From Chiloscyllium plagiosum (lineage: Eukaryota): a stretch of 50,000 nt of DNA. Shown piece after piece: positions 1,945-50,000 of this stretch (its first letter is position 1; every line of letters begins with the position of its first letter). Below the pieces are notes generated by a model. It searched no databases. It was given only the letters and a program-made list of their open reading frames with translations, and was not told where the DNA came from. The stretch covers positions 1-50,000 of the forward strand of contig NW_025214746.1 in the NCBI RefSeq assembly GCF_004010195.1, read 5' to 3'. A program made the translations under genes and the position numbers.

Positions 1945-2140
1945 CTACAAAGTTAAAAATCACACAACACCAGGTTATAGTCCAACAGGTTTAATTGGAA
2001 GCACACTAGCTTTCGGAGCGACGCTCCTTCATCAGGTGATTGTGGAGGGCTCGATCGTAACACAGAATTTATAGCAAAAATTTGCAGTGTGATGTAACTG
2101 AAATTATACATTGAAAAGTTGCTTGTCTATTAATCCAAAT
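1945..2140 (-). mobile_element. Short Penelope-type 3'/pLTR element (family A)
   Basis: 10-bp TSD CATGGATGGG at 1935-1944 and 2141-2150. Carries a hammerhead motif. A second copy is at 26856. Confidence 0.8.
2004..2038 (-). ncRNA. Minimal type I hammerhead ribozyme (family A), intact core
   Basis: Reverse complement reads CAC CUGAUGA A GGAGC GUC GCUCC GAAA GC UA GUG: stem I CAC/GUG, 5-bp stem II, palindromic stem III AGCU, cleavage triplet CUA. Confidence 0.8.
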
Positions 2141-2366
2141 CATGGATGGGATAGGTATGGAGGGATAAACACAGGCAAATGAGACTAGATTAATTGTGAA
2201 AACTGGGCTGCATGGACAAGTTGGACCAAAGGGCCTTGCAGGCTGTAAAGCTTTGAATTTATTTTTGCACCTTATTCCAAAAGATATGTTCAGAATGGGA
2301 AACATTAGGTTTCATGACACTATTAAATAGTAAGGTAAATGTTTGCAGAGCGAGTTCTGACATTGA

Positions 2367-2503
2367 AAACAAAAATGCTGGAAGTCACAGTGGGTCAGGC
2401 AGCATCTGTGGAGAAAGAGTGAGCTAACATTTTGAGTCTAAATGACTCTTTATCAAAACTCTGTTTTCAGTACAGATTCCAGCATCTAAAGCAATTTGCT
2501 CCT
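2367..2503 (-). mobile_element. Old Penelope-type short element (family D) with a decayed hammerhead
   Basis: TSD ACATTGA at 2360-2366 and 2504-2510. Reverse complement TTGATAAAGAGTCATTTAGACTCAAAATGTTAGC is a decayed CTGATGA-stem-GAAACGTT. Confidence 0.65.
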
Positions 2504-3074
2504 ACATTGAGTTATGACATTACTTTCTCAGTTTAGGGACTTGAGTTTGAACCCACTTAAGATAGGTAAAAGCTTCCATGTTCTTGGACTTGAGTGAATT
2601 GCTATGTGCAGTCATGGACTTATCCTTAGTGATATCATAATGTACAAATTGCCCAGTATTTAACGCAAATTGGCATTGTGTTATTATTCCTCCAGAGACT
2701 GAGTGGCTCAAGTGAGTAATATAGTTGCATTGGTATAGTAGTTAGGTGGTAACTGACCACAAGATTTCTAAAGAACATTAAACTGAATGAACATTTTGTG
2801 TTGATACTTGAAGGTTGATTTGGTTACTTGAGTTCTCTTGGCATCATGAAATTAGATTGTTGATGACCTTAACTATTGAAGTAATAATTGCAGTCTGGCT
2901 TGTTTTAAGATAGGAATTCATTGAAGCAAAACAGTACTAAGAATTGATTTATTCTTATGTTGGGTCTTGAGCCACAAATCTATTTTTCCTGGACAGGAGT
3001 TGACCAATGAACCAACTTTATAGGGTGTAACTTTCTCCATTTGAAAGCTGTATGAACTTTTTTTTTCTTTAAAT

Positions 3075-4160
3075 TTGTTATTATTTATTCTTGGAATTGA
3101 TCCAGTTGCTGGCTATACCAGCATTTACTTCCTCTCTTGTTGGTCTTGAGAGGAGATGGTGAGCAGCCTCCTTGAACTGCTGCAGAACATGTGTGTAGGT
3201 AGGTCCACAGTAATGTTAGGGAGGAAGATCCAGTATTTTGACCCAGTAACATTGAAGGAATAGTGTTATGTTTTCAAGTCAGGATTGAGTTGTTTGATAT
3301 TGGGACCTTTGCAAGAGGTTGAGCTGCACTATCAACTCAGCTCTTCTGGCTGAAGATTGTTCCATCCTATGCACGAATATGTTGTGCTTCTCCATTATTG
3401 ACAATGGGAATGTTTGCAGAGCTCCTGCCTCCAGTAAGTTGTTTTGGTGTCAAATACTGTTTACGCTTTGATGTGGCAGGTCTGCAGAGCTTAGAAAAGA
3501 GCAGTTGCTAGGGAATCACTTAGCTTTCTCTCTGACTTGTGGTTATGCAGTATAGCATGAAAGTAGTTCTGTTTTGGAGCCTTATGAAGTTGGAACCTCA
3601 TTTTAGGGTGTGCTTGGTGCTGCTCCTCTCATACCCTCTGCACTTTGATCCAAGGGTTGACCCTTGCTTGATGCTAATGGTAGAGTGAGGTTTATGCTGG
3701 ACCATGAGGTTGCAGATTGTGTTGAACACAATTTGAATACTGCTGATGGTCACAGTGAGTTACTAGATATATTTGAAGTCTAACCCATTTAGCATGGTAA
3801 TAGTGCCACACAACATGATGCAAATAATTTTCAGTGTTAAGGTGGCATTTTGGTCAAGGTATGTGGTAATCAACAAGAGGTTTCCTTGTCCATGTTTGAT
3901 CCAAGGATGATGATAATCTTGTTTAGGGCATTGTTTGTAGGTATCATTCCACGAGAACAACTATATCAGGTGGTTACTTGATTAGTCTGCAGGACGATTT
4001 TAGGACTAGCTCCCAGATTGTCTATAGGAGGAATTTGCGAGGTTGACAGTACTGTTTGCTTTAGTCAATGTCAGGTGGTCCATCTGATTTTAGTCAATTT
4101 TTTTCCCCTTTCTAACAGTTAATGCAGCTGAATGGCTTGCTTGGCAATTTTGTTGTCGAA
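3075..4160 (-). mobile_element. Old LINE fragments (L2/CR1 group; same family as 7520 and 10800)
   Basis: Shares CAGCATTTA...CCTTGAACTGCTGCAG...TTTTGACCCAGT...GAAGGA with the copy at 10800-11115. Confidence 0.6.
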
Positions 4161-4194
4161 ACTGTTATTCCTTATGAAGGTAAATTAAAAGGAG

Positions 4195-4370
4195 AACATT
4201 AGCTCAATTGCTGAATAGTTGGTCTGCAATGTAAACTGATGCTTGCAGTGTGGATTCAATTCCTACACTGGCTGAGGTTAACATGATTGACTCTCCTTCT
4301 CAACCTCTTCCTTCACCTGAGGCATGGTGGCGCTCAGGTTGAGAGCAGTCTTATGATTTGGTTAGACTGC
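4195..4370 (+). mobile_element. Old tRNA-derived SINE, distinct from HE1
   Basis: A-box-like TAGCTCAATTG, B-box-like GGATTCAATTCC, and hairpin CCTGAG-GCATGGTGGCG-CTCAGG. Confidence 0.55.
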
Positions 4371-6731
4371 AGCAGCTTTAACAATTATAAAGAAACAACA
4401 AAGGTAATCAAATTTGCAAGCCCCCTGTGAGAAAATTAATGGGGGAGAAATTATTGTTTTTGTGTTACAAATGCTTAAATGCGATTCAAAGCACCACTTA
4501 TAATTAAATGAAGTATAATTGGGTAATGGAATACTCGGGAGGAAATAACTTTGATCCTTCATCTCAATGCCTTAAACCTCATTGCTGCAGCCCCTTCTGG
4601 TGTTAAATGCGTTTTGTCAAATGTAATCTGTGTTGCTTCAGCTGTTTGTCTTAAATGTGCAATGTAGTCCTCAGCAATTTAGATCTTCTTGGTTGTTTTT
4701 CCCGATTTCAGGCGTTGATAAAGTACTGCTTATGGTTTAAAATCTCAAAATTCAAACTGAAACTTGATAAAATAACTAGGATCCTCAGTTATATTGATAG
4801 TTTTTTTTAAATAGTTGATTTAGGATATAAAATAGAGGTAACTTTTGCTTCACCCTAAATGTTGTTAGATTTCTTTTTGTATGTTTTTGTGAAAAAGTTA
4901 ATTGTGTTATCTTATAACCTTTTGCAACATATCTTGTGCAATAACAGTTCAGATTAATACAGCTGTAGACATGCACCATTTAGTCCACAGAAAGAAATCC
5001 CATCTGTGCAATTTCTGACGTCTGCCTTGATGCTCGAATTTCAACTCATCCATTTTTTTTGTCAGTAAACAAAGCAGTTGTTGTGCAACTGAAGTACATT
5101 GCTGAGAGGAAATTGAAGGAAATTGAAGTCTGGATGAATTGGAACTTATGTAACTGGATTTTCTTTTGGGCTTTTTAACCTTGGAGTTATAAAACTTTAG
5201 CTTCAATCTGGTTTAGTATTTCTCTTCTGAGACTAAAATGGAACACAAATTTTAAATTAGCTGAACCAATTTGGTGAAATCAAATTTGTAGTTAAGATTA
5301 AGTAATCTTGTGACCACACTCTTTATGCAAATGTTGGTGAGTTGGTTGGCTGCTTGTGTGTCAGGCATAAACAAAGATGGGAGATTTTTGACATTGTGAT
5401 CATCTTTGAAAATGATTGCATGTTTGTGTCACAATGAGGTATGATTTTTAGATTGTGATTTGTTCTGGATTGTAGTTTGCAGATACTTAGATAAAAGCAA
5501 GATGCTACCCTTTCAGTACAATTTTTTTTCCAAGCATACTACCCTCCAGTGTATATTTTAATGGAGCTTAAAAATTGACCATGTGGTTTGCATTAATATA
5601 ATTTTTGCTTAAATGTAATGAAATAATTATATCTGAGTGTGGCATTGAGATCAAACATTTGTTACATTGTGTGAGAGGGAGGAAAATACTGAGCGAAGGT
5701 CCGTATTGAAATGGTATCCTACCCATAATAATTGAATCTCATTTGTCCCCATGTGAATCCGGTTCTTGGATTCCTTGTAAGAGTATTGGATGATATTTGC
5801 TTCCTTTGCTTTCAAACATAATTTTCAAACATTTCTATGAATCAATAATGGTACTGTTCAAAATATGAAACTATAATGTGCAGCAGAGGTTTGGGATAAT
5901 TTTATGAATGATGGACAAAATTCAATGCTTCCACTACAAACAGGACCTTTAAATTTAGTTAGCGCTGTTCAGAAATGACTGGATAATAATTAGGAATTGT
6001 AAATGTGGAGAGCTAATTCAATTGTTTCTAATTAGAATAACTTTAGTGAACTTTTAACCGTGCAAGATGCTTTTTTTTTAGCTTTCATGGCTCAGAACTT
6101 CTGTGCAATAGCAATGGCCATTGGATTGCCACTGTGCTTGTAAATTTCCTGACTGTATGCTGCTGTTTTACTAAAAAGAGTCTTCAGAGCCTGGCTTTCA
6201 CAGAAGAGTACAGTGTAATGCCCATCAGGGAATTCTCAGAGTAGAGTAGAAGGAAAACAAAACATAATCCATTTCGACAGCACTGGCAGCCATATGGCAG
6301 GTTTAAATATAAAATTTGAATGCAAGTGAATGAGTGGGTGGGTTGGGTATAGGTGGGTGAATATTGGATGTGTTGGAGTCAGGTTGGAGTGTTAGGTCTT
6401 AGTGTTAGTATTCAGATAGAGTCATAGAGATGTACAGCACAGAAACTTGTCCATGCCGACCAGATATCCCAACCCAATCTAGTCCCACCTGCCAGCACCT
6501 GGCCCATATCCCTCCAATCTCTTCCTATTCATATACCCATCCAGATGCCTTTTAAATGTTGCAATTGTGTTAGCCTCGACCACTTCCTCTGGCAGCTCAT
6601 TCCATACACGTACCACCTTCTGCGTGAAAAAGTTGCCCCTTAGATCTCTTTTATATCTTTCCCCTCTCACCCTGAACCTATACCCTCTAATTCTGGATTC
6701 CCCACTCCAGGGAAGAGACTTTGTCTATTTA

Positions 6732-6898
6732 GGCAAAAGTGAAGACTGCAGATGCTGGAAACCAGAGTTTAGATTAGAGTGGTGCTGGGAAAACACAGCA
6801 AGTCAGGCAGCATCCGAGGGAAGCAGGAAAATCGACGTTTCAGGCAAAAGCCCTTCATCAGGAATGGAGGCAGGGAACCTCCAGAGTGAAGAGATAAG
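6732..6898 (-). mobile_element. Short Penelope-type element (family B)
   Basis: 10-bp TSD TGTCTATTTA at 6722-6731 and 6899-6908; family terminus AAAGTGA-GACTGCAGATGCTGG; hammerhead motif. Confidence 0.85.
6830..6865 (-). ncRNA. Minimal hammerhead ribozyme (family B), core intact
   Basis: Reverse complement reads AUUC CUGAUGA A GGGC UUUU GCCU GAAA CG UC GAUU: palindromic stem III ACGU, triplet GUC, G-U pair closing stem II. Confidence 0.72.
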
Positions 6899-7149
6899 TG
6901 TCTATTTATCCTATCCATGCCTCTTATGATTTTATAAACTTCTATAAAGTCACCCCTCAGCTTCCGACGATCCAGGGAAAACAGCCCTTGCCTATTCAAC
7001 CTCTCCCTATAGTTCAAATCATCCAACCCTGGCAACATCCTTGTAAATCTTTTCTAAACCCTGTCAAGTTTCACAACATCTTTCCGATAAATTATGTTTT
7101 ATTCAGTCAAAACGTTTCATAGGTACTATTCTGGCTAACCCTGTAGATT

Positions 7150-7285
7150 GTCTGACATCAGAGTCAGAGACTTGCATGAAGTGTTGCAAGGAGCTAAAGA
7201 ATTGCCCATAGGAATTTGAGACTTTCCAGGCAATTCCCACATAGGTTCATGCATTGAGACTTCCACAGGGTCCAAAATTCCAGCT
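7150..7285 (+). repeat. Dispersed repeat; inverted copy at about 8962-9120
   Basis: 7224-7248 matches the reverse complement of 9017-9041 at 24 of 25 positions, with similarity in the flanks. Confidence 0.7.
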
Positions 7286-7519
7286 ACAATTGTATGTTAG
7301 ACTTCAGTGAACAAGAGGCTGAAGATTTGGCTCATGTTCTTCAGGCTCAACTTCAGAGGATACAGGTGCATTTTATCAATCGATCAGTTCTTAATTTATC
7401 AAAATAGACATAGCAGATTTGAGGCTTTGGTTTTGGATTTGCTCCCCATATGCTTTGGTAACTTGGCAACGCATGGAACAAATTTGCAATTTGCAACTCA
7501 CTTCCTATTAGCTCTGTGG

Positions 7520-7642
7520 AAGTAACTACACCCTATGGACTGCAAGGATTCAAGGAAATATTTCACCACTGTGTCCTTCAGGGATATTAGGGATGGCCAA
7601 TAACTGCTGGCCAACCAGCGATTTCCACATTGCACTAAAAAA
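7520..7642 (+). mobile_element. LINE 3' end (same family as 3075 and 10800)
   Basis: GGACTGCAAGGATTCAAGG...TAGGGATGGCCAATAACTGCTGGCC resembles the reverse complement of 10825-10900. Confidence 0.6.
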
Positions 7643-7747
7643 TTGGTGAAAAAGAAAGTTAACTGAAGGTGTTTGTCACTGGATCAGTAGTAACCCTGTT
7701 TCTCAAATTTCTTCTGTGATCAATAGATTTAATTCCTTCAAGACAAC

Positions 7748-8404
7748 TATAATGGACCAGACTTAACCCCCTCAAAATATATTAAGAAGGTAGTCTTAAC
7801 TTTTCTTATTTTAAAGGTAAATGTGAGGTATTGCATTTAAGACACAATTTGGTCAAACTACTTGGCATTAAGCAAAACACACTTTATTCATATACTGTCG
7901 TTAAAATACAACAAAAGGAAGAACAAAGAAAATAATTGGCTTAGCTGTTACACTGTGGAAATGCTTAACAAAATAATAGATACAGTAACTATTACTAATA
8001 AACTGTTCCAATACAGTACCATTCCATTAACACACCCTTGGCAAAAGACAAGTTGAGAAAACAATGTCTCACATGCAACTCCAGCAGCAGGAAGACAATC
8101 CACAGCTTTTTAGCTGCAACCAAGAGGAAAACATAGCTTCCACTTCTTCAAGACCCCAGCAGCAACTGCTGATACTGAAAAAGTGAAAAAAAACCCTCCG
8201 AAAATCCTGGTTTGTGAGAGCTTGATCTAGGCATTCAGGCTGCTTTTATTGGTCTAACATTTTTTAAAAAAAATCCAAGGCCTCACAAGCTGTTTACTCT
8301 TGTGGTTCTGTGGAGCTCCTTGGAACCTCTGCTTTAAAACCTCCCCTTTTATAAAAATAAATAGGACAAAATAGACTTCTTAAGATGCTGATAGTATTGT
8401 TACA
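7748..8404 (-). mobile_element. Probable decayed solo LTR
   Basis: Minus strand begins TGTAAC and ends ATTATA (decayed TG...CA), with AATAAA about 135 bp from its 3' end. No TSD recognised. Confidence 0.4.
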
Positions 8405-8961
8405 ATGCCCCCAGTATTCCATGATGAAAATTGACCCAGCTAACAAATACATCTATCTTTTTCTCAGATGTGCATAAGTGACATTTCAACTACTTTTATT
8501 GTCGCATGCATTCTACTAAACCTCACCCTAAGAGTGTGAAAACATACAATTACTGTCTTTTTAAGTCCAGGTTTGTTTGATGAAATACCATTCTTCTATT
8601 TTTCAATTCTGTATCTAACACACCTGCTTGTCAAGTGTTTGTTTTATGTGGTTGCCAATTACATGTTAGGTTAATTGTTCTATGCTGCTATTCAACCTGT
8701 ACATGCAATGTTTTACAATGTTGGTGATCATAGCTTTCAACCTTTGTGTTATTCTCAAAGCTTATACTCCATTTCTGATGTACTTCCTCCTTTGATTCTC
8801 TCTTGCTTTGCACCCTACTTAAAAAGACCTCTAATTTTCCCATCTCCACCCAATATGTTGTTGAATTAAGAACTGATACTTTATGTAATGTGTATCTCTC
8901 TGATATTTTGAAATTCGCCCTGGACAATATGCACCAAATCTTCATTTCTCTAGATAGTTGG

Positions 8962-9120
8962 AGGCCAGAAATTCAACTAAAGATTGACTTCCAAGGTCTG
9001 TGGCAGTCCTGCTGCCGAACCTATGTGGGAGTTGCCTGGAAGTTTCAAGTTCCAGTGGGCAAATCCCCTGCTCACTGGGACTCTCTGTGAAGGTTTCCGA
9101 CTCTGAATTTAGAACTGTCC
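8962..9120 (-). repeat. Dispersed repeat; inverted partner of 7150-7285
   Basis: Same match as described for 7150-7285. Confidence 0.7.
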
Positions 9121-9357
9121 AAAGTCTCCAATTCTGTTAAAAGATGGTCTGTTTAAACTCTGAAAAGTCTCATCTTTTTTTCTCAAAAAAAGTTAGAATA
9201 TATCTAAAGTTGCTTAATCATAATCTTAAGACACAGGCTATGAATTTGGAGGTGAGTGAGTTTTGTCTGTGTGAACTTATCATAGGCTGTATTTAGCTTT
9301 GCTGTGGGAAGAGATGTTTTCGCAGCAGGAGGTAACATGGCAATCATTTTGTCTAAT

Positions 9358-11115: not shown

Positions 11116-12259
11116 CCTTCTATCCTACTATCTCTTGACCTCAAATTCACAGTACTGCTGATGTTCTATCTGACTTAGTGTGGATTATCTGAATCTAAAT
11201 AAATGAACATGCTGAACCGATGCTAGTTCCACTTAGCTGGATTCTGACTGTTTTTCATGTTCCATTGAACCACAAAGCAGTGATGTGTGAATTTGCAAGT
11301 AATGTTAATGTTAATTTTCTATTAATTAGATGCTCAAATTTGTGGCATATTGATTATTTCTTGTTGTGCTTTCTGTTGAGGATTTATTTGTGGGACCGTT
11401 TAATAAAAAAATGCTTGAAACACTTAGCAAGTCTCAGTGTCAGTGGAGTGAAAGTCATCAACATGAAATATTGACTGTACTTTCTCGCTGACTTCTTGTC
11501 AGACTCTGAGTGTTGCACGCATTTTCTGTTATACTATTTGTGATAAATTGCAGTAGTTCATTCATACCTGCTTAGAGTTTATATTAATCCAGAAAAAGAA
11601 TGCAGAGTTAGAATTCAGAGCAACTCATTGCTTGTCTTTGACAGCTAATCTGAATTATGAAGCTGTGCTGTTGATATTCCATGTAGACTTTGTGTCTTGA
11701 TGGGGAATGTTGAGTTGCAGCTGTAGCAGCTCTTGGATTCCTGAAATCAATATAGAGGTCGACAATATATGCTGACAGCTCTTATCTGTTGCTCCCAGCT
11801 ATGGTCTTAAAAGGACTTGCCAGCCTTTCATTTCTGCATGTTTGTAAATGCCAGATTGTGGCGTAAACTGAACAACTGTCAATCAATTCTATTTAGTTAT
11901 ACTGAGTCTAAAAGCAAATACAGATTGGCAAACAAATTTACAATATATAATTATTGAATGAGTAGGTTGAGCAAGGCAAAACTGCCAGAGCTGACCAGTG
12001 GAGCAGCAAGATAAACAATATGTTTACAATATATCGGAATGCTAAAATTATGTTCTCACCCTATGTTCTAAGTTCTATCTCATAGCTCAGTCTGATTTCA
12101 CATTCAAAAAATCTCACGCTTGAATGAGGGAGGCAAATTAAAAATTAAAACATTTATCTGGTTAAGGCTAATTAACATTCAGGGTGTGCATAAAGATTTG
12201 TAGCTCTGATGCCGGTTGTCGTAGTTGTGGGTATGTTCATTGAGCTGGGAAGTTGATTT

Positions 12260-12299
12260 GCAGACGTTTCATCCCCTATCTAGGTGTCATCTTCAGTGC
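12260..12299 (-). ncRNA. Hammerhead ribozyme in Penelope pLTR; core intact, stem II weakened
   Basis: Reverse complement reads GCA CUGAAGA U GAC ACCUAGAUAGGG GAU GAAA CG UC UGC. Confidence 0.65.
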
Positions 12300-12758
12300 T
12301 TTGGAGCTTTCTCTGAAGCGCTGCTGTACTGTGTCTTTGGAATTTATTTGGTTCCATTCCTGCTGCTCCCGGTTGTTGGTTCTGGTTTTTTGTTTTAGAC
12401 CTTGATCCAATATACGGGTCATATGTGCTTGTTGGTAGAGTCCGTGGATGAGTGCCGTGCTTCTTGAAATTCTCTGGCTGTCCTCTGTTTAGCTTGTCCG
12501 ATGATTGTTCTGTTGTCCTCGTTGAGTTTGTAATCCTTGTCATCTGTGTGTGTGGCAAGTAGGGACAGCTGGTTGTGGTGTTTAGTGGATAGTTGGTGAT
12601 CGTGGATGTGGATTGCCCGTTGTCTGCTTGTTTGTCCTATGTAGTGATGCATTCAGTCTTTGCATGGAATCTTGTAAATTATGTTTGTCTTGCACATAAT
12701 GGATATTGAGTCTTTTGTCCTGGTGAGTTCTTGTCTGAGCATGGATGTCAGTTTTTAA

Positions 12759-13049
12759 AGATAGATTAGATTACTTACAGCGTGGTAACAGGCCCTTCAG
12801 CTCAACAAGTCCACACTGACCCGCCGAAGCGCACCCCACCCAGGCCCATTCCCCTACATTTACTCTTTCACCTAACCGACGGACAAATTAGCATGGCCAA
12901 TTCACCTAACCTGCACATTTTTGGACTGTGGGAGGAAACCCACGCAGACACAGGGAGAATGTGCAAACTCGACACAGAGTTGCCTGAGGCGGGAATTGAA
13001 CCCAGGTCTCTGGCACTGTGAGGCAATAGTGCTAACCACTGTGCCGCCC
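12759..13049 (-). mobile_element. HE1-like (V-SINE) tRNA-derived SINE inside the Penelope arm
   Basis: tRNA-like head, central TCTCCCTGTGTCTGCGTGGGTTTCCTCC, and TAATC tail. Confidence 0.9.
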
Positions 13050-13151
13050 ATGGTTTATGGGCTATCATGAATCTGTGTGGTTTGAGAAGCTTGGTTGTCA
13101 GTTCTGAGACATTATAGCCATCTTTTGCAAGATTAATGTAATTTACAAGAC

Positions 13152-13349
13152 GGACTAGGAGAAAGTGAGGACTGCAGATGCTGGAGATCAGAGCTGAAAA
13201 ATGTGTTGCTGGAAAAGCGCAGCAGGTCAGGCAGCATCGAAGGAGCAGGAGTATCGCCTTTTCGGGCATAAGCCCTTCTTCAGGAAGGGCTTATGCCCAA
13301 TACGTCGATTCTCCTGCTCCTTGGATGCTGCCTGACCTGCGCTTTTCCA
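13152..13349. mobile_element. Palindromic Penelope-type element (family B) with decayed hammerheads on both strands
   Basis: 14-bp TSD GTAATTTACAAGAC at 13138-13151 and 13350-13363. The arms fold back around GGGCATAAGCCCTTCTTCAGGAAGGGCTTATGCCC. Confidence 0.85.
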
Positions 13350-13679
13350 GTAATTTACAAGACTCCATGCAAAGCTCGATAGGACAAACTAGCAGACAAG
13401 TAGCAATCAGCATCCACGATCATCAACTAGCCACTAAACACCACGATCAGCTGTCCCTAGTAGCCATGTACACAGATGACAAGGACCGTAAATTTGACTG
13501 GGACAACACAGTGGTCATAGAGCAAGCCAAACAGAGAATTTCTAGAAGCATGGCACTTATTCATAGACTCCACAAGCACATAGGTCTAGACCCAATATAC
13601 CGGCCACTACAACAAAGAACCGGAAGCAGCAGAAGTGGAACCAAATAAATTCCAGAAGCGCTTCAGAGGACATTCCAAA

Positions 13680-13719
13680 GCACTGAAGATCATTCCCATT
13701 CAGGGGACGAAACATCTGC
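13680..13719 (+). ncRNA. Degenerate hammerhead in the right pLTR of the Penelope element
   Basis: GCA CUGAAGA U CAUUCCCAUUCAGGGGAC GAAA CA UC UGC; the base of stem II and the stem III palindrome are disrupted. Confidence 0.55.
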
Positions 13720-14202
13720 AAATCAACTTCCCAGCTTGGAGAACATACCCACAACTATGTTAATTATTTTATCTCTAGTTCCTTGCCCTGACTTCATAAA
13801 CTATTCTGTTTATATGCCATACTAAGTACTTAATGTTACTATATTTTAAAGTAAAATATCACAGCTTTTGGACGTTGGATAATGGAATACTGTGTGGACC
13901 TCTTGAGGTCAGCGAGTGGTATCGATGTTTCTATCTGTATTCCAGTCGTCATGAATGAGCTATCCGAGCAACCATCTAGCTTAAAGAGGATATTGTTCAC
14001 AACATACTTTTCTGCTTTTCATTATTGTGTCTGCAAATTTAGCTACCACACCCTCACTTCTCTCATCTAATTCATTGATGTGAATTGTAAAACTTTGAGG
14101 GTGCACCTCAGATTGCGACAGGGCTCCACTCATCACATGATGGTGATCAAAGAAAGACCCACTTGTTCATACTCCAGTTTCCACAAGCCAATCAACCTTT
14201 TA

Positions 14203-14513: not shown

Positions 14514-14676
14514 TTGGCCATGCTAAAATTACCCCATAGTGTGCAGGGATGTGCAGGTTAGCTAGGTTAGCCATGCAGGATTATTGAAGGACTCTGGGTT
14601 GGATGCTGCTCGGAGGGTTGGTGCAAATTTGATGGGTGGAATGTGCTCTTTCTACTCTCTAGGGGTTTTCTGATTC
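14514..14676 (+). mobile_element. HE1-like SINE 3' part (old)
   Basis: TGGCCATGCTAAAATTACCCCATAGTGT...GGAGGGTTGGTGCA. Confidence 0.75.
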
Positions 14677-14789
14677 CAGGTAAGCTGTTACAATCGATCC
14701 TTAAAGTTACAACTGGAAAACACAGGATACTTGGGAAGAGACAGCATGGCTTGGTGAAGTGGAAATGTTTTTCTAACGTTCTTGCCTTG

Positions 14790-15089
14790 AATCATAGAAT
14801 CCCTACACTGTAGAAAGTGGGCACTCACCCCATCAAGTCTGCACCAACCCTCTGAGGAGCATCCAATTCAGAGCCCTTCAATAACCCTGCATGGCTAACT
14901 TACATAACCTGTACACCCTGGGGCAATTTTTAGCATGGCCAATCCACCTCACTTACATATGTTTGAATGGTGGGAGGAAACCCACGCAGACAAGGAAAAC
15001 TAGAAAAAACTTCCAGGCAAGGTTGGAATTGAACCTGTGTTCCTGGTGCTGTGAAGCAGCAATGCGAACAATGTTTCACCATGCTGCCC
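14790..15089 (-). mobile_element. HE1-like SINE (diverged, full length)
   Basis: GGGAGGAAACCCACGCAGACA core, head GGGCAGCATGGTG on the minus strand, ATTCTATG-type tail. Confidence 0.85.
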
Positions 15090-15352: not shown

Positions 15353-15423
15353 GTTGAATGTAATTTTTGCGAAATTTGATGAGGTTCAGAAATCTGGAAA
15401 TATGATTTTGTCTTCAGCAGCTG
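15353..15423 (+). CDS. CLASP1: CLASP1 internal coding exon (end of TOG1 region), 71 nt, phase 2 to phase 1
   Basis: Acceptor ttttctttatccAG and donor G|GTGAGT. Translates to (R)LNVIFAKFDEVQKSGNMILSSAA(D), matching recalled human CLASP1 RLNVIFTKFDEVQKSGNMIQSAND. Joins in frame to 42010. Confidence 0.93.
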
Positions 15424-16827: not shown

Positions 16828-16969
16828 CAAAAGCAAGAATGGATAGAAATTGGGAACAAAGTTGATTTAAGCTTTCTGGTTTGATGCAAGAGTAGACAGT
16901 ACCTTTAGATACAGTGATCAATTTACCAAAAAGAATTGAGGGTGGAAACAGTAGAACTGAAACAAAGCA

Positions 16970-17170
16970 AAGAGAAAGTAAGGGCTGCAAGTGTTGGAGA
17001 GTCATTGGAAAGTGTGGCACTAGAAAAAGCTCCAAGGAGCAGGAGAGTCGGCATTTCAGGCGTAAGCCTTTCATCATATTTCTAATGAAAGGTCAACTCT
17101 CCTGCTCCTAGGATGCTGTCTGACCTGCTGTGCTTTTTCCAGTGCCACACTTTTCGACCATGTATCTCCT
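16970..17170. mobile_element. Decayed palindromic Penelope-type element (family B)
   Basis: Inverted arms AAAGTGTGGCACTAGAAAAAGC and GCTTTTTCCAGTGCCACACTTT around hammerhead remnants. Confidence 0.7.
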
Positions 17171-17464
17171 GAAAAGGCAGGCTCATTCAGGAAACATACG
17201 AGTTCCTGAAGCAATGCCCCTTGTTTTGGAGTCACGCACATGTGTGGAGTAATTGGGAATGATGTTTAAGGTAAAACCAGGTTTAGCCAGGCAGAAAAAG
17301 AGTGCTGATAGTTGGGGTCTCATTGCATCTCAGTGTGAGAATGATGAGGTAAACTGGTGACTGATGACACTGTAAACAAACTGGATGTCCGTAGTGTAGA
17401 GGAGACTTTTAGGAAGTGGAAACCACTAACTTAAATTTAATTAATTGATGTAGATTAGAAGATG

Positions 17465-20956: not shown

Positions 20957-20993
20957 GTAAGATTCAAACTGAAATTTGTCAGTTTAAAATCAG

Positions 20994-24599: not shown

Positions 24600-25295
24600 T
24601 GATCGAAGAAAATGTGGTGGGATGAGGAATTATTAAGTTTGCAGATGACATGAACATTGGCTGGGTGGTTGATAGTGAGGAAGAAGTTCATGGTTTAAGG
24701 AGAGTGTAGGTTGGCCAAATGGGCATATCAGTGGTAGATGGAATTTTATATTGGAAAATGTTGGAAAATTAAACAAGGTAAGGGAATACTCAATGACTTG
24801 ACTAACTCTGCTTTCTCCTGACAGATGCTGCCAGATCTGCGTTTCTTCAGTAATTTCTGTTTTTGTCTTTACCAGAATGTTGCCTGGCATGGAGCAGATT
24901 ACTTATGAAGAGAGGCCAGATAGGCTCAGGTTGTTTTCTGGGGTGGGTGGGGTGGTAAGAGAGGCTAATGTTGTTTAAAATTACGAGGGGTGTGCACAGA
25001 GTGGAGGGAAAGCTGCTGTTCCCCTTAGTTGAAGAGTCAATAACAAGGGTCCATAATTTTAAGGTGAAAGGCAGGATTTTTGGAGGGGACTTGAGTAAAA
25101 CATTTTTTCATCCAGAGGGTGGTGAAAGTCTACAATTCACAGCCTCTGAGCATAGTTGAGGCCTAGATATCAGAACCTTTTAAAAAGCGCTTGGGATAAG
25201 CACATGTCCCACAGCCTTGAATGTTATGACACAAGTGCTGAAAACTGGGACTGGTGTAACTGAGAATAGCATTTGTCTCTGCACTGTATGATTCT
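24600..25295 (+). mobile_element. Old CR1 fragment with a Penelope-type (family D) tail at about 24800-24872
   Basis: AAGTTTGCAGATGACA (KFADD), ACCAGAATGTTGCCTGG, and insert ACAGATGCTGCCAGATCTGC. Confidence 0.75.
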
Positions 25296-26855: not shown

Positions 26856-27220
26856 CAAAAATCACACAACACCAGGTTATAGTCCAACAGGTTTATTTCC
26901 AAGTGCTCCTTTTGGAGCACTGCTCCAGGTAGCTGTGGAATAGGATTATAGCACACAGAATTTTCAGCAGAAGATCACAGTGTCATACTACTGAAATGAT
27001 ATATTGAACAAATCTAGATTGCTGTCAAGTCTTTCACCTTTTAGAATGGGCTGCAGGTTCATTAATATGTAAATCTCAGAACTTCTTTCAAGTCACATTC
27101 TCAATATAACATTAGATTTTATAAAAGAAAGGTGACATCTCAGCAATTGGACTATAACTTGGTGGTTGTGTGATCTTTAACTTGGTCCACCCAAGTCCAA
27201 CACTGACACCTCTACATCAT
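26856..27220. mobile_element. Penelope-type element (family A) with an inverted terminal segment; hammerhead core deleted
   Basis: ATCACACAACACCAGGTTATAGTCCAA on the left and its near reverse complement at about 27147-27175. TSD core TTTAAATGT at 26847-26855 and 27225-27233. Confidence 0.8.
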
Positions 27221-29219: not shown

Positions 29220-29687
29220 TGTGAGGTTCCCTTCTTGAGATTCTTACACGCATGATGCAACTACAATCTGCCAACTTCTGTGAACAGCCATGATTTATTT
29301 CAGCAAGTACAAACTTTTGGAGGATTGCTTCGTGCTCTTTGCGATACTTGTGGAGCGTGTCAAGCGAGGCTGTCCGAACAAGGGAACCGTCCTCCCCTTA
29401 TATGAGGTTTTACATCACAGTCAGTCATGCACACAAGACACAACCCTTTGCTACCCAAAAAGTGAGAGATTAGGTTATTCTGTAAAACAGCGTGTGATTA
29501 GATTATTCCTGAAAACAACGTGTGACTAGGTTATTCCTGAAAACAGCGTGTGATGAGGTTATTCCATAAAATAGCGAGTGTTCGGGTTATTCCTTAACCT
29601 GCAGCCTTTACAGAGTATCATTAGATTGTCACATCCTGCCTGTAAGACAGAACTTATCAGAACAAATTAACCCTTTAACATCTCACA
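29220..29687 (-). mobile_element. Solo LTR, 468 bp (ERV or Gypsy type)
   Basis: Inverted termini TGTGAG and CTCACA; 4-bp TSD CCCC. On the minus strand, a U3 tandem array is followed by TATAA (29398-29402) and AATAAA (29294-29299). Confidence 0.85.
29468..29593. repeat. 28-bp tandem repeat, about 4.5 copies, in LTR U3
   Basis: Unit is approximately GATTAGGTTATTCCTGAAAACAGCGTGT, with starts at 29468, 29496, 29524, 29552 and 29580. Confidence 0.9.
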
Positions 29688-34317: not shown

Positions 34318-34440
34318 TTCCTGAAGAAGTCACGCTGGACTTGAAACATTAACTCTGTTTCCATTTCAATGGATGCTGCCAGATCTGCCAACATTGTGTG
34401 TTTATATCAGATTTCCAGCAAACACAGTATTTTGCTCTTG
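34318..34440 (+). mobile_element. Penelope-type tail (family D) with a degenerate hammerhead at 34321-34354
   Basis: CTGAAGA AGTC ACGCTG GACT T GAAA CATT AACT, followed by GATGCTGCCAGATCTGC. Confidence 0.7.
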
Positions 34441-37478: not shown

Positions 37479-37652
37479 AAAGTGTGACACTGGAAGAACA
37501 CAGCAAATCAGGCAGCATCCGAAGAGCAGGCGAATCGACTTTTCAGGCATAAGCCTCTAATCGGGATGTTGCCTGACCTACTGTGCTTTTCCAGCGCCAC
37601 TCTTTTCGACTTTGATCTCCAGCATCTGCAGTCCTCACTTTCTCCTAAGCCA
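37479..37652. mobile_element. Palindromic Penelope-type element (family B)
   Basis: 9-bp TSD ATCAGTATC at 37470-37478 and 37653-37661; inverted arms; decayed hammerhead. Confidence 0.82.
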
Positions 37653-42009: not shown

Positions 42010-42156
42010 ATAAGAATTTTGATGAAGATGATTCGGTGGATGGAAATAGGCCATCTTCTGCTAGCTCCACGTCTTCAAAAGCTCCCAGTTCACGGCGTAT
42101 GGTTGGTACCAGTCGTAGACCAGGATCATCTGCAGTTGGCTTGAGGACTGGTACAG
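42010..42156 (+). CDS. CLASP1: CLASP1 internal coding exon (linker after TOG1), 147 nt, phase 1 to phase 1
   Basis: Acceptor ttttattctttaatctAG and donor CAG|GTAACA. Translates to (D)KNFDEDDSVDGNRPSSASSTSSKAPSSRRMVGTSRRPGSSAVGLRTGT, matching recalled CLASP1 DKNFDDEDSVDGNRPSSASSTSSKAPPSSRR better than CLASP2 DKSFDDEESVDGNRPSSAASAFK. Confidence 0.95.
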
Positions 42157-43044: not shown

Positions 43045-44740
43045 TCATAGAATTATACAGTCCAGAAAGGGCCATTCGGCCCATCAAGTTTATATTGCCA
43101 AAAGTCTATCAATACCCCATAAAAACCAAAAGAACTATGGCTGCTGTAAATCAGAAGCAAAAACAAAATTTGCTGGAAACACTCAGCGGATCTGGCAGCA
43201 TCTGTGAATAGAAATCAGAGTTAGTGTTTAGGGTCCAATGACCCTTCCTCAAAACTGATGGTAGCTGGGAAAATGTATAAACTGACATCTTTCTAGCTAC
43301 CATCACTTTTGAGGAAGAGTCACTGGACCCGAAATGGTAGCTGTTTTCTCTTCACCAGTACTCCATTAGTCTCATAGCCTTGAATATTGTGGCTCTTCAA
43401 GTGCTCATCCAGTACTGTTTAAAGATTGTGAGGTTTCCTGCCTCAACTACCATCTCAGTCATCCAGACCATCCCCCTGGGTTTAAAAAAGAACTTTTCCT
43501 CAAATCCCCTCTAAGCAACAAGAAAGACAAGCATCCTCTATGGCTTCTTAAATTCCCTATCGACCTGTTGTACCATCTTCAGTAATCCAGACAAGTACCC
43601 TGAGATCCCTCTGTTCCTTTGGCCTTCTTACTTCTTGCCATTCATTGAGTACTACCTTGTCTTGTTCTTCTTTCCAAAGTGCACCTCACATTTATCAGTG
43701 TGAAATTCAATCTGCCACTGATCTGCCCACCTTACCACTCTGTTTGCACCGTCCTGCTTCCACCCCACTGTCAACCACCTAGCCAATTACTTATTTCTCT
43801 TACAAAAGATTGCACGCGCACAATTTTAATAAAGGATCACGAGTTGATATCTGTGGTACACCGTTGCACACCAGTTACAAATATCCTTTTATTGCCACCC
43901 TCTGTCTTCTGTCATTCAGCCAATTTTAGATACAGTGAGATTTTATCTTCTTTATCAGATTCCCATGTAGGACCTTGTCAAATATCTTGTTGAAATTCAT
44001 ATAAACTATGTTAACTGTCCCACCCTCACCCAACACTTCGTTGCCTCTGCCAAAAAATCCATTTGATTTGTTAGGAATGACCTCGCTCTGACAAGGCATT
44101 GCTGACTCTTTCTGATCAAACTTTGCCTTTATAGATGGAGATAAATTTTCTCATTCTCTATTTTCTCATTCTCTATTTTCTCTAATAGTTTCCCTATCAC
44201 TAATGTTATACTCTTTGGTCTACAGTTTCCTGATTCTCTACCACCCATCTCGTGCCTCATTAGTTGTCCTCTGGTACCTCCTCTGTAACCAGAGTTGATT
44301 TAAAAATTTGGGTTGGGGCCCTTAATATCCTCCCTTGTCTTCCACAGCAGTCTGCGATACAAAACATTGGATCTGGGGATTTGTCTACTTTTAAGTCTGT
44401 CAAAATCTCCAATACCTCCTTGCTGCTTGTGTCAATCTATTCAAGCATGTCAAAGTCATTTAATCGAATTCTGTGCTTGCATCTTCCGTCTCCCAAAAAA
44501 AAAGACACATGTGAAGAACTCATTTAACACTCTACCAATGTTCTCTGGCTTAACCTGGTTATTCTCACCCCCTTTTGTACCTGTAACCTACCTTGGAATT
44601 CTCCCTAATTTTATCTCAATCCCTTCTTTGCTCTATTAATTGCTTTTTCAGGTTCCCCCATGCATTTTCTGTATTCCTGTAGGATCTCCATTGTTTTGCT
44701 CCCTTTGTAACTGTTGAGCATCTCTCTTCCATTTTGTTCA
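43045..44740 (-). mobile_element. Old CR1 LINE relic
   Basis: Tail GTCATAGAAT..GGCCATTCGGCCCATCAAG and RT relic TTTCCAAAGTGCACCTCACATTTATC. Confidence 0.7.
43120..43358. mobile_element. Palindromic Penelope-type element (family D) with decayed hammerheads
   Basis: Fold-back from about 43226 to 43335. Plus arm TTGAGGAAGAGTCACTGGACCCGAAATGGTAG is a decayed CTGAnGA-stem-GAAA. Confidence 0.75.
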
Positions 44741-46589: not shown

Positions 46590-47275
46590 GATAATGAGGA
46601 TTTGGTGTACCATGCTTTAAGTAAAGTTAGTGTACAGCTGTTTAGGGATCAGCTAACTGGATCTAACTTGAGATTTTCCTGATTAATTATTTCTTGCCTT
46701 GAAGAGATTTACTTATTGGGGAGATCATTGATGAGACCACATGTCTAATACCGTGTCCTGTTTCAGTGGTCTTATTTGAGGAAGAAAACTAATGAATCAG
46801 TGGTGCTTCAGAGGAAGTTTAGTTGGTTGATGGGAAGTTTAGTGGGATGAGTGGGCTGTCTAATAAAGAAAGTATTATAATGGGCATGTTTCCGTTGGAG
46901 TTTAAATGAATGAGGTATGACTTTATTGAACAGGAAATAAGATCCTGAGTTGTCTTTTCAAGGTGAATGTAGAAAAGTTGTTTCCTCTTGTGGGTGAGTC
47001 CAAAAATAGGCTGCACTATTTAACAATTAACGGTCACCCTCTCAGGACAGAAATGCTTTTCACTGACTGAAATTCTCTGGTTCCAAAGGCAATAGAGATA
47101 GTCACTGAATTATTTTTAAGGCAGAGGTAGACATATCTTTGTTTGTCAAGGGAATCAAAGGTTATTGGGGGTAGATGGGAATGTGGAATTTGAAGCACAA
47201 AAATGTTACTGAATGGCAGAGTGGCTTGAGAGAAGGAGTGACCTACATTTCCTCAGTTGGTATTTGTTGTATTCC
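46590..47275 (+). mobile_element. Old CR1 relic
   Basis: CATTGATGAGACCACAT, GTTTCCTCTTGTGGGTGAGTCC, and TTTTTAAGGCAGAGGTAGACA. Confidence 0.7.
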
Positions 47276-48038
47276 TACAGTTTGTCCATTATACATAGAA
47301 TGTGAAAGTGAGACATTTGAAAAATAAACCTGATACTTTAGCATTTTAGTAGATGCTATAATCTAAAATTACGTAATTTTATTTTTGCCAGTCATGGTAC
47401 AATATTTTCCAGAAGATTAAATGACACACATTAAATAAGACGAGCAATGAGTTAAAAGACTGTCTGATCTTTACAACCTTCAAAACCCTTGTCACTTCAA
47501 AGGTAAATGTAAAACTAAATAGAACACAGGCAATTATAGTCGGGCAGTAGGCGGCTAGAAGATTTCTATGAAACCCACCAATTGAAGCTTAACTTGAAGA
47601 ACCATGCTGGTCTTGATTAATGTTGTCATACTGTATACAAAAGATAAATATTATATCAGCTCTGTCTCAGCGAGACATAGGTCCAACTCTCACTTTAAGA
47701 TATTCCATATAATGGCCTTCACTGAACGAATTATTAGTTGTGTTCCACGTGTCCACTGACCTTTGGGGGAAAGAACCAATCTTGTAACATGTAACCTGGC
47801 TCTGATCATGCACACTTCAAAATTGTGACCCTTATCTTCCCTAGCCTATTCAGTTGAAGTAAACTGCTACATTTGAATTCCTGCCACCAGAATCCTTCAA
47901 CATAGGAATCTCCATATGTAAAACAGCACCCTCACCATCATTTTTTTTGAACGTTTGATGAAATGGAACAAATAAAATAAACATGGACTTGTTATTTATA
48001 ATTTTGAATGCTGTAAATTTATGCCCCTTTGTTACTTC

Positions 48039-48872
48039 TGTTATTAGTGTTAAGTACAGTCCATGTAACATGTGATTTTGTTTTTTTTGTATAGCATTTC
48101 TTAAAATGAGTTTGGATTTTAAACTAGTGGCATTTGAATGTTGGGTTTTTTTTTGGTGAAAGGTTTTAAGAATTAACTAGATCAGTTTTTGAGAAGCTGT
48201 AATTTTTAAACTAGTATGGAACTCCTGGGGTGTTAATGGAAGTTTGTTTATATTCAACAAAATATTAAACTGTTGGCATAGCAGAGTCTCTGATGAGCAA
48301 GTTGTTTTTTTAATGTAGTTTAAAAACCTTTAGGTTTAATTTGAAGGGGTTCTGAAGTCAGATGCAAGTTTTATTTCTCAGAGAAAAAGGAGATTGTTCA
48401 GTGTAGTTAAGAAAGTAAATTACCTCAGTGGAAAAGTGCTGTTTGCGAAATCTTCCATACTAGTAGTGTTTATCTAGAAACTTGTATTGGTTATTCAAAG
48501 CTGAGAAGGTCTAAGATCTTAGTTGTGTGAACCAAAGAAAAAGACTTCACTGCATATAGGTCCAGAACTGAAAAGCAGTAGTTGTTTTTGAGTAAGTATA
48601 TGTGATGGTGTAGGGGAATAGATGGGATTATTTTGCCACCTGTTTTGAAAATTTTCAAACAATTATAGATGAATAGCTTGGTTTATTTTATTTTTGTTTC
48701 TTTTGTGCAGTAAACTTATGTTTTATAGTTAAACACAAGGCTGCCGATTTGGTTTTATGTTGCAGTGGAAAACCACCAAGTTAAATTAAAACTAAAATAA
48801 TATATGATTATCAAGCGAGATTTCATTTTGGAATCTGACTTGTCTGATAGTAACATTGGCTGAAACATAACA
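48039..48872 (+). mobile_element. Probable decayed solo LTR (834 bp)
   Basis: Inverted termini TGTTAT and ATAACA; flanks CTTC and ATTC (3 of 4 match); AGTAAA at 48709. Confidence 0.45.
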
Positions 48873-49189
48873 ATTCAACTTCAGGTTTTTTTTGTGAAAT
48901 TAAGTTGTTAAACCACAGAAATACAAAATTGAGGTGATTTGTTTCGTAAATATTAGTTTCTATAATCTTTCTTAACCCCCTGCAGATAAATAAAGTGGGA
49001 GGTAAAAATCTGTTAGATGGCATATTGTTTAACCATATCCTCAGTTACGGAGAAGTTTAAAGATGTAAAAACATTCTTTTTGGTAAAATCACTTCAATTG
49101 GCATGTAAACTTACTGGTCTCAGCTAATACGTAGTGTACCTTCTGTTTGTAACAGAGCAATGCCTGACATATTTTAGATTCATAATTGT

Positions 49190-49340
49190 GGTGAATGGGT
49201 GGCTCAATACCAAGGATACGGCAGCATTTAGTTCTAGGTTTCAATCCAGACCAGGTATGGTTTAATTCTCTGTTGGTTATAAGTGTCTTGATGTGAAATG
49301 AGTTTCACAGATAACCAAATTGGTTGCTAATTGGACCAAA
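49190..49340 (+). mobile_element. Old tRNA-derived SINE resembling LF-SINE
   Basis: TGGCTCA, TTCAATCCAGACCAGGT and ATGTGAAATGAGTT (49291-49304) occur in the order recalled for LF-SINE. Confidence 0.45.
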
Positions 49341-49462
49341 GTAGCAATCTTTCTGCTCATATAGGAAATGGAAATGAAAATGGAAAGCCTGTATTGGATA
49401 TATTAATAGAATTGGGATGCAAGGATTTTACCAGAGCATTTTGGTTCCAGAAACAGAGAGAA

Positions 49463-50000
49463 TGTTGTGGTTCTGTTCGCCGAGCTGGGAATTTGTGTTG
49501 CAGACGTTTCGTCCCCTGTCCAGGTGACATCCTCAGTGCTTGGGAGCCTCCTGTGAAGCGCTTCTGTGATCTTTCCTCTGGCATTTGTAGTAGTTTGAAT
49601 CTGCCGCTTCCGCTTGTCAGTTCCAGCTGTCAATGGCAGTGGCCGGTATATTGAGTCCAGGTCGATGTGCTTATTGATTGAATCTGTGGATGAGTGCCAT
49701 GCCTCTAGGAATTCCCTGGCTGTTCTCTGTTTGGCTTGTCCTATAATAGTAGTGTTGTCCCAGTCGAACTCATGTTGCTTGTCATCTGAGTGTGTGGCTA
49801 CTAAGGATAGCTAGTCATGTTGTTTCGTGGCTAGTTGGTGTTCATGGATACGGAGCATGTCCTCATTCCGTTGTCTTTCCCTTAGGCATCTGTTGATGAA
49901 ATTGCACGGGTATCCGTTTTTGGCGAATACATTGTATAGTTGTTCTTCTTCCTCTTTTTGCAGTTCTGGTGTACTGCAGTGTGTTGTGGCCCTTTTGAAT
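49463..50000 (-). mobile_element. Penelope-like element (family C relative), running off the window, internally deleted
   Basis: Minus translation FKRATTHCSTPELQKEEEEQLYNVFAKNGYP (thumb) is joined to RIHEHQLATK..FDWDNTTIIGQAKQRTAREFLEAWHS (GIY-YIG C-terminus), then the pLTR. Confidence 0.92.
49500..49539 (-). ncRNA. Hammerhead ribozyme in Penelope pLTR, intact
   Basis: Reverse complement reads GCA CUGAGGA U GUC A CCU GGAC AGG G GAC GAAA CG UC UGC: stem I GCA/UGC, paired stem II, palindromic stem III ACGU, triplet GUC. Confidence 0.82.

Follow-up and report, generated by a model that had tools for sequence, protein, structure and literature searches.

Minimal hammerhead motifs in three introns of bamboo-shark CLASP1a very probably mark dead, truncated PLE insertions

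Why does one stretch of shark DNA hold a dozen repeats with hammerhead-like motifs, and do these motifs act as ribozymes? The question is raised by a 50,000-nt stretch of the bamboo-shark genome (hereafter the window), analysed here at its full length. A sequence-only reading had placed about ten hammerhead loci, from four distinct repeat families (A to D), within one intron and had proposed a very large genomic ribozyme load. Exon mapping identifies the host gene as CLASP1a. Two of its exons on the plus strand, at 15353-15423 (where the first TOG domain region ends, mapped by 62/62 CLASP1 proteins) and at 42010-42156, divide the loci among three introns rather than one. Another stretch, ~7300-7365, is exon-like in look and was rejected, having no match in the 62 CLASP1 proteins. 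All 12 listed loci are indeed copies of repeat families, and they probably represent 11 insertions when C12260 and C13680 are counted as one. The three intact motif copies are all antisense to CLASP1a (3/3, a sample too small to infer bias).

The hammerhead motifs are real. Our strict descriptor combined a core of CUGANGA plus one nucleotide, a stem II of at least 3 bp and GAAA with a palindromic 15.2-16.2, UH and a stem I of at least 2 bp. It finds three complete minimal hammerheads (C3 at 2035, 6861 and 49536), all on the minus strand. Across 1000 dinucleotide shuffles it finds none in 996 and one in the remaining four (mean 0.004, maximum 1). This excess, together with a match to the published min-HHR consensus, bears out the proposal of minimal hammerheads at PLE termini. 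An Rfam search of the window (E<=10) returned no hammerhead family and four unrelated matches, as expected because the motifs have no stem III. A MIR9471 match at 43227-43338 scored 41.5 bits, where the gathering score is 150, and was discarded, since it merely mirrors the palindrome of family D.

Few of the motifs are intact. We parsed 14 motif positions, 11 scored and three read by eye, for 12 invariant positions (C3, U4, G5, A6, G8, A9, G12, A13, A14, A15.1, U16.1 and H17). All 12 are kept at 6/14 positions, and both invariant positions and stems at 3/14, none of these in family D; counted as ribozymes, ‘about ten’ loci was therefore too many. The extra nucleotide between 9 and 10.1, noted earlier, is present in 3/3 intact copies, and stem II and the triplet are as described for A (GGAGC/GCUCC, CUA), B (GGGC/GCCC, GUC) and C (a long stem II, GUC). 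The 10.1-11.1 pair is G-C in A2004 and C49500 and G-U in B6830, and the palindromic 15.2-16.2 is GC in family A and CG in families B and C. Compensatory change, previously offered as an argument for real structure, has within-family support from one D pair (A-U at 2425, G-C in the left arm of 43226); the other stem differences lie between families. In scattered copies, CpG decay erodes C11.1-G12 and C15.2-G16.2. According to predicted folds, 0/4 monomers adopt the hammerhead and palindromic copies bury the motif inside long hairpins. A dimer hammerhead fold is possible, yet it lies 13-20 kcal/mol above the dimer MFE (ViennaRNA).

Family C links the motifs to a coding element. A copy at 49464-50000 on the minus strand carries an internally deleted remnant of RT thumb and GIY-YIG sequence that extends off the window end, and behind this remnant an intact motif (C3 49536, N17 49503). 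The head-to-head inverted insertion at 12180-13764 occupies both strands and was later broken by a SINE-like repeat (~12757-13045) and by B13253. Its minus arm (12180-13120) holds a GIY-YIG remnant and a motif (C3 12296) with damaged stem II, its plus arm (~13126-13764) a motif (C3 13683) with damaged stems II and III. Because the arms adjoin head to head, the C12260 and C13680 loci probably stem from a single inverted insertion. At 65-90% identity, the ORF remnants align with shark proteins that combine RT and GIY-YIG and run at their C-termini into the motif. The GIY-YIG ORF claimed for this family is thus recovered by alignment, as RT and GIY-YIG remnants upstream of the motif. Pfam gave no real match for the window's broken C ORFs (0/3), and relatives were needed for recognition. 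The CX2-5CxxC linker occurs in 0/5 of the shark relatives. Judged by these alignments, the coding sequence of family C is that of a Poseidon-type PLE, and the relatives of this family combine RT with a C-terminal GIY-YIG and no Zn-finger linker, like the Poseidon PLE of Anolis (PAc; Frangieh et al. 2024, PMC11167929). PAc is active and full-length; the window preserves nothing but broken 3' pieces.

Family A is represented by two insertions. The one at 1947-2135 (minus strand) is a 5'-truncated pLTR end and not inverted; a 10-bp duplication of the target flanks it at 1935 and 2141. It contains an intact minimal type I hammerhead at 2004-2038 (C3 2035, N17 2007, stem II 5 bp, stem I 3 bp). The other, at 26853-27219 on both strands, is inverted and lies within a LINE fragment. 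Its minus arm (26853-27139) has a destroyed core, its plus arm (27144-27219) consists of the distal tail with extension, and its target duplication is degenerate (12/14 bp, judged by eye, at 26842 and 27220). The tail extension is found in 1485 contigs. The sequence-only reading had asked whether family consensus sequences lack the core. Loose-end consensus from other copies holds an intact core for family A (616 contigs in X1, 673 in X10) and the intact right half of the core for family B (507 RNA reads in X21), which settles the matter for A and partly for B.

The affiliation of family A comes from two metagenome contigs of another marine organism that have only the 36-nt core in common with shark family A. 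In contig L002, a GIY-YIG-type ORF with the CX2-5CxxC linker is followed after ~750 nt by an A-type core (34/36 nt identical); in L001, an A-type core and an RT fragment are arranged head to head. This linker defines the Neptune clade of PLEs (PMC8557442). Among the best 150 relatives of the L002 ORF the linker pattern is present in 107, and they include turtle RT + GIY-YIG proteins; of those scanned for domains, 6/7 have RVT_1 and 3/7 GIY-YIG. On this protein evidence, family A is probably a Neptune-type PLE.

Families B and D form one lineage. A profile built from B alone detects D copies (E 3e-6 and 4e-5), one built from D alone detects B (1e-6), and the alignment of their tails past the cut beats 1000/1000 shuffles. 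The four proposed families therefore reduce to three lineages (A, B/D and C), with B and D as sisters. The intact B copy (6732-6898, minus strand) was inserted into a LINE fragment, with a 10-bp target duplication at 6722 and 6899, and has an intact core (C3 6861, N17 6834, a G10.1-U11.1 wobble, stem I 2 bp). The other three B insertions are palindromic. At 13152-13350 (minus strand, 14-bp duplication at 13138 and 13350) the inversion centre, 13279.5, falls inside the core, U16.1 is lost and one arm only has a ~50-nt tail extension. At 16950-17182 (both strands) the arms join at ~17078-17082 and both cores are broken; at 37479-37652 (both strands, 9-bp duplication at 37470 and 37653) the core is destroyed.

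In family D, an inverted insertion at 2365-2500 (minus strand, with a weak 7-bp duplication at 2360/2504) has a long minus arm with a broken core (U3, A8, A12) and a short plus arm of distal tail from ~2460. It is also present in a second species (X10 record, joint 2371-2462). Whether the short arm begins at the cut site is ambiguous; identical letters also fit the distal tail. The copy at 34318-34435 (plus strand) keeps the invariant core letters and has damaged stems I, II and III; an inverted arm upstream of it was weighed and dropped. The palindrome at 43134-43356 (both strands, centre 43279.5) has a broken core with U3 in both arms, and a tail-only fragment without core at 24795-24867 (plus strand) had escaped the earlier list. 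Among the four D arms none is intact, stems I and II pair in 2/4, U3 occurs in 3/4 and U16.1 is retained in 2/4. N17 is U in 4/4, and 15.2/16.2 reads UG, CA, CA and UG, a pattern of decayed CpG, so GUU is likely to be the family D triplet, as had been suspected. No ORF could be linked to B or D by protein search with the B translation or by patterns in viral and genome contigs, and tblastn of 150 Neptune-type proteins returned C remnants, LINE pieces and weak noise, with no B/D ORF.

The anatomy of the insertions is that of PLEs. Seven of the 11 are inverted head to head; the inversions of families A, B and D are 150-370 nt long, and in 4/7 the junction lies no more than ~5 nt from the first core base. 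Target duplications are exact at five insertions (7-14 bp) and 12/14 bp at a sixth, and no direct duplication was found for the C pair, B17050, D43226 or D34321. A tail on one arm only is seen in B13253, A26856 and the C pair, and both a short end and a tail-extended end occur. Inverted pLTRs, one-sided tails and 8-10 bp duplications are known from PLEs (PMC3846280, PMC8557442). In particular, Penelope elements of Adineta vaga and Drosophila virilis (PMC3846280, PMC2377424) show head-to-head inversion, a junction palindrome, a one-arm tail and 8-10 bp duplications. Compared with these, the shark inversions are very short and often join close to the core.

The motifs themselves are equally familiar. 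Cervera and de la Pena 2014 (PMC4209133) described the min-HHR of metazoan PLEs, with six families in coelacanth and eight in Xenopus. The shark motifs share with it the type I fold, CUGANGA plus the extra nucleotide, G10.1-C11.1, GAAA, the palindromic 15.2-16.2, the absence of loop 3 and a short stem I. They also share the occurrence of several families per genome, mostly as single motifs on truncated copies with some opposite-strand pairs. Since every diagnostic feature is already in that paper, the motifs are not new, as the sequence-only reading foresaw. The identification is thus ordinary: PLE minimal hammerheads, their within-genome variety and inverted pLTR insertions have all been published. 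Sharks are absent from the motif list in supplement file 2 of that paper, which counted 4,000-9,000 motifs in coelacanth and Xenopus. Read depth suggests very high copy numbers of the shark families, far more than these counts, albeit with decayed copies included. A large genomic load therefore holds for motif copies; for working ribozymes it finds no support, because most copies are decayed, monomers lack stem III and palindromes hide the motif in hairpins.

Taken together, we consider it very likely that the window copies are dead, 5'-truncated insertions of three PLE lineages (C Poseidon-type, A probably Neptune-type, and the sisters B/D), each with the minimal type I hammerhead of the PLE pseudo-LTR. 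From the literature, a tandem master element would be transcribed through its pLTR. The RT-endonuclease would nick the target, and cDNA would start internally in the RNA, at either of two neighbouring sites, so that a short or a tail-extended end results; such start sites have been shown for the anole PLE. The template is uncleaved RNA, because each core-bearing copy retains sequence to either side of the cut, and for family A the anatomy shows that this RNA also continued beyond the poly(A) site. PAc likewise initiates internally at two sites, which produces a tail, copies uncleaved RNA and shows no read ends at the cut site (PMC11167929); our read data show no pile-up of read ends at the predicted cut site. 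As the structures indicate, the cDNA would often end early and be joined head to head with a second arm, producing a palindrome and a target duplication, possibly through fold-back or through priming at both strands of the target. In scattered copies the motif is a passenger, with no stem III in a lone copy, hairpins hiding it in palindromes and CpG decay eroding it. Cleavage would probably be confined to the RNA of tandem masters, in dimeric form and aided by protein. Sharks seem to carry very many copies with clean target duplications, which is useful material, and counting breakpoints on them could address both cutting in vivo and the origin of head-to-head inversions.

Other readings have to be weighed against dead PLE insertions. 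Chance matches in A/T-rich intron sequence would be consistent with 39 occurrences of CUGANGA by itself in the window, with folding z-scores of about zero for isolated motifs, and with a relaxed descriptor (one core mismatch, no stem I) that finds two in the window and 0-4 in eight shuffles, i.e. no excess. However, the strict count of three is above anything in 1000 shuffles, the motifs recur at a constant position within repeat families and follow PLE ORFs, and an intact family consensus recurs in hundreds of contigs. The shuffle test and this consensus refute chance, to which we give next to no probability. Regulation of CLASP1a, with some intronic motifs working as ribozymes that cut its pre-mRNA, is very improbable. 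Amniote-conserved intronic hammerheads are known (PMC6155905), three cores are intact and D2425 is common to two species, but its core lacks G12, every intact motif is antisense, stems or cores are broken in the motifs on the sense strand (13683, 34321, 43309), and a single min-HHR gave no in vitro cleavage (PMC4209133).

It is unlikely, too, that B and D, and perhaps also A, derive from pLTRs as non-autonomous, SINE- or retrozyme-like short units that PLE proteins help to move, with palindromes as their normal form. The window has no coding sequence beside any A, B or D copy, 4/4 B insertions stop 0-37 nt upstream of C3, and the summed read depth is very high. PLE-derived retrozymes are known in vertebrates, including one chondrichthyan (10.64898/2026.07.22.740005), and these non-LTR retrozymes (see also PMC7229834) share the type I hammerhead, the PLE pLTR origin and the non-coding nature of the shark copies. 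They are defined, however, by tandem repeats with a motif per unit, and the window has no tandem motif array among its five tandem repeats; on the same strand, the closest intact motifs lie at a distance of 4.8 kb and belong to different families. Moreover, junction and arm length differ in each palindrome, which argues for separate events and not one amplified hairpin. A26856 reaches ~210 nt upstream of its core, and 404 RNA reads run on beyond the 5' end of A2004.

The addition made here is that family A is polyadenylated just behind the predicted motif cut. On the minus strand a poly(A) signal, AUUAAA (1995-1990), is followed by a poly(A) site at ~1978-1975 and a GU/U-rich stretch. In RNA run X21, family A reads end in poly-T loose ends at 1975 and 1978 (559 + 456); these reads derive from family copies anywhere in the genome, not this locus specifically. 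Hence ~1,000 RNA reads place polyadenylation ~30 nt past the predicted cut, which itself lies 11 nt before the signal. X21 gives no sign of RNA editing (36 A-to-G and 30 T-to-C against 35 and 30 in a DNA run). For 1900-7000 no RNA record was listed, a result that says nothing about expression. PMC4209133 calls the 3' flank only AU-rich. The used poly(A) site in family A offers a concrete idea of what the cut could serve. Family A might be a compact RNA 3'-end switch in perhaps 10^4-10^5 copies across bamboo-shark genomes, in which cleavage, by dimers or with a PLE protein, removes the poly(A); we regard this as unlikely. If true, the tail would be lost from element RNA and from host transcripts ending in a sense A copy. 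The sole strand-change joint listed within A could then be a trace of cleaved template, i.e. in vivo evidence of cleavage by a PLE minimal hammerhead: it lies no more than 2 nt from the predicted cut, in 10 contigs of X1 and five of X10.

The hammerhead motifs in the window are real and were correctly named in the sequence-only reading. A strict minimal-hammerhead descriptor (CUGANGA plus 1 nt, stem II of at least 3 bp, GAAA, a palindromic 15.2-16.2, UH and stem I of at least 2 bp) finds three of them, all on the - strand, with core position C3 at 2035 (family A), 6861 (family B) and 49536 (family C). Among 1000 dinucleotide shuffles, 996 contain no such motif and four contain one. With a relaxed descriptor (one core mismatch permitted, stem I not required) the window count is no better than that of its eight shuffles, and an Rfam search of the window gives no hammerhead match. 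The window motifs are mostly decayed. Fourteen motif positions were parsed (11 of them scored by script), and all 12 invariant positions are kept in six, named here by family and locus: A2004, B6830, C12260, C13680, C49500 and D34321. In three of these six, stems I and II and the palindrome of stem III are preserved as well. The remaining eight positions have lost C3, G12, U16.1 or bigger pieces; CpG decay at C11.1-G12 and C15.2-G16.2 accounts for many of the motif changes. U replaces C3 in three of the four family D arms (2456, 43252 and 43309), and in D2425 U3 occurs together with A8 and G12 is lost. The U3 and A8 pair is a covariant core known from Schistosoma, according to the available text of PMC4209133.

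In every feature given by the sequence-only reading, the motifs correspond to the min-HHR of Cervera and de la Pena 2014, whose available text already reports several motif families per genome and single motifs without cleavage (PMC4209133). They are an ordinary case of the class described in that year. Our literature search pairing hammerhead with shark or cartilaginous fish found no paper on shark motifs. In the portions consulted, Penelope is among the elements given as present in the paper on the whale shark genome (PMC8455134), and a 2026 preprint reports retrozymes in one chondrichthyan, with tables that may include shark families (10.64898/2026.07.22.740005).

The loci lie in part of the bamboo-shark CLASP1a gene (+ strand), to which all three intact motifs are antisense. 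One exon, at 42010-42156 (+), shows 100% identity to CLASP1a from Chiloscyllium punctatum as well as from Hemiscyllium ocellatum; the other, at 15353-15423 (+), corresponds to residues 216-235 of human CLASP1. Both are flanked by AG and GT, and the 62 CLASP1 proteins tested, from sharks and rays, all map here and nowhere else. Since these exons fall inside the window, the repeat loci are distributed over three introns, not the single one first proposed. A short open frame at about 7300-7365 has an exon-like look, with AG and GT-like flanks, and matches none of the 62 proteins; around it (7290-7370), CUGAAGA occurs on both strands without the remainder of the core.

The proposed four families likewise reduce to three lineages, because B and D have a common tail and the A and C profiles are self-specific. 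The profile of B copies matches D at E 3e-6 and 4e-5, that of D matches B at 1e-6, and one B/D tail pair outscores all of 1000 shuffles; the A and C profiles match their own copies only, plus one match at E 0.26. C12260 and C13680 stand head to head, meeting at about 13120-13126, and the ORF of the - arm resumes beyond a SINE-like repeat, with residues 105-127 at 13113-13045 and residues 119-241 at 12769-12407. We infer that the two are a single insertion, within whose + arm B13253 was later inserted with a 14-bp target duplication. No direct target duplication was found for the C pair; its outer ends are flanked by a 10-bp inverted match (12169-12178 and 13757-13766), which could reflect target duplication in inverted form or a coincidence in A/T-rich DNA.

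In total there are 12 insertions, including the tail-only D24850, and 11 have both ends inside the window. Of the latter, seven are inverted head to head (A26856, B13253, B17050, B37535, the C pair, D2425 and D43226), and in four of the seven the sense arm begins within about 5 nt of C3. Besides that of B13253, exact target duplications occur at A2004 (10 bp), B6830 (10 bp), B37535 (9 bp) and, weakly, D2425 (7 bp), with an imperfect one at A26856 (12/14); the search found none convincing at B17050, D43226, D34321 or the C pair. A tail extension is often present on one arm and absent from the other, and that of family A is present in 1485 contigs. Inverted pseudo-LTRs, one-sided tails and target duplications are all described in the available text of Arkhipova et al. 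2013 (PMC3846280) and Craig et al. 2021 (PMC8557442). Predicted hairpin folds of B13253 (-116 kcal/mol, z -13.65) and D43226 (-78 kcal/mol, z -12.07) would bury the motif. The window also holds a 138-nt inverted repeat at 14547-14918, with 96 nt separating its arms, SINE-like and unrelated to the hammerhead families, and a 28-nt tandem repeat of 4.5 copies at 29468-29594.

The link to Penelope-like elements (PLEs) differs by family. Family C is 65-90% identical to shark RT and GIY-YIG proteins, with Pfam scores under cut-off, and is of Poseidon type because none of its five shark relatives has the Neptune linker pattern. Five annotated shark isoforms (P0121, P0126, P0129, P0130 and P0132) carry translated family C PLE sequence C-terminally, through either exonisation or annotation artefact. 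For family A, scanning metagenome contigs for the core pattern gave two loci matching at 34 of 36 nt, the likeness being confined to the core. These marine contigs, L001 and L002, have 677 nt in common at 99.6% and hold pieces of Neptune-type PLEs together with an intact A-type motif. The L002 motif stands some 750 nt downstream of an ORF that contains both a CX2-5CxxC linker and a GIY-YIG-like segment; a Pfam scan of this ORF was blank, and its relatives, turtle proteins among them, have RVT_1 in six of seven scanned and GIY-YIG in three of seven. L001 has the same end joined head to head with an RT fragment, and 109 nt of the 3' region of L002 recur inverted at the start of L002 itself. All searches for an ORF linked to families B and D were blank, and their putative PLE status is based on motif and insertion anatomy.

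The used poly(A) site of family A and a breakpoint near its cut deserve follow-up. Four public runs (two-species DNA contigs, raw poly(A) single-cell reads and RNA-like contigs) were aligned to 1900-7000. In the RNA run X21, of which 2% was read, poly-T loose ends stand at 1975 (559 reads) and 1978 (456 reads), where the depth at 2002 is 2034; the first mates are chiefly on the + strand (845 vs 211). This reads as family A RNA in the hammerhead sense, polyadenylated about 30 nt past the predicted cut. AUUAAA at 1995-1990 is followed by a GU/U-rich stretch, and internal priming is unlikely because the A2004 site has no genomic A-run. AAUAAA stands at the corresponding place in A26856 and L002, and just past stem I in seven of 44 published-alignment rows among those listed (eye count; available part of PMC4209133). 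The literature covered, including term look-ups in PMC3846280, PMC2377424, PMC3681739 and PMC6765202 and with most subscription papers outside its scope, mentions no poly(A) signal behind PLE hammerheads, which is weak evidence of novelty.

In X21, 442 reads gapped at 2002 probably span the cut site uncleaved, and no read-end pile-up was found in the 2% of that run read, where a cleaved product of ~30 nt would fall below library size. The genomic copies of family A extend past the poly(A) site, to about 1950 or farther, which means that the RNAs serving as their templates were read-through and uncleaved. Frangieh et al. 2024 describe, in the text available, two-site internal initiation with an uncleaved template and protein-assisted cleavage (PMC11167929). 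Among the joints listed, the only within-A strand change runs from 2004 to 2043 (10 contigs in X1, five in X10, one read in X21). It falls at most 2 nt from the cut site, and as a trace of cleavage it is a lead only; stem I complementarity gives microhomology there. In structure prediction a hammerhead fold appears in none of four monomers; in the dimer it is possible, yet 13-20 kcal/mol above the dimer minimum in ViennaRNA, which undervalues hammerhead cores.

Among the rows listed, the loose-end consensus of family A keeps the core intact with a different loop II (616 and 673 contigs), and that of family B keeps the right half of the core in 507 RNA reads. Set against ~20-25 on single-copy contigs, the depths sum to 7.0 million for family A (position 2002), 0.44 million for family B (6820) and roughly 0.02 million across D, with 9.6 million for the LINE fragment 6517-6687. 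Summed depth is no copy number; overlapping short contigs push it up and divergence pushes it down. As a rough reading only, family A has some 10^4-10^5 copies, on the scale of the adjoining LINE. We take the repeats adjoining the hammerhead loci to be a CR1-type LINE and a SINE. In public contigs, copies of families A and B often pass at their ends (1950-1954 and 6864-6866) into sequence resembling that from 6416 onward, where another repeat has its edge. Each such joint occurs in 10-33 contigs, and the pattern suggests either a favoured target or frequent nesting.
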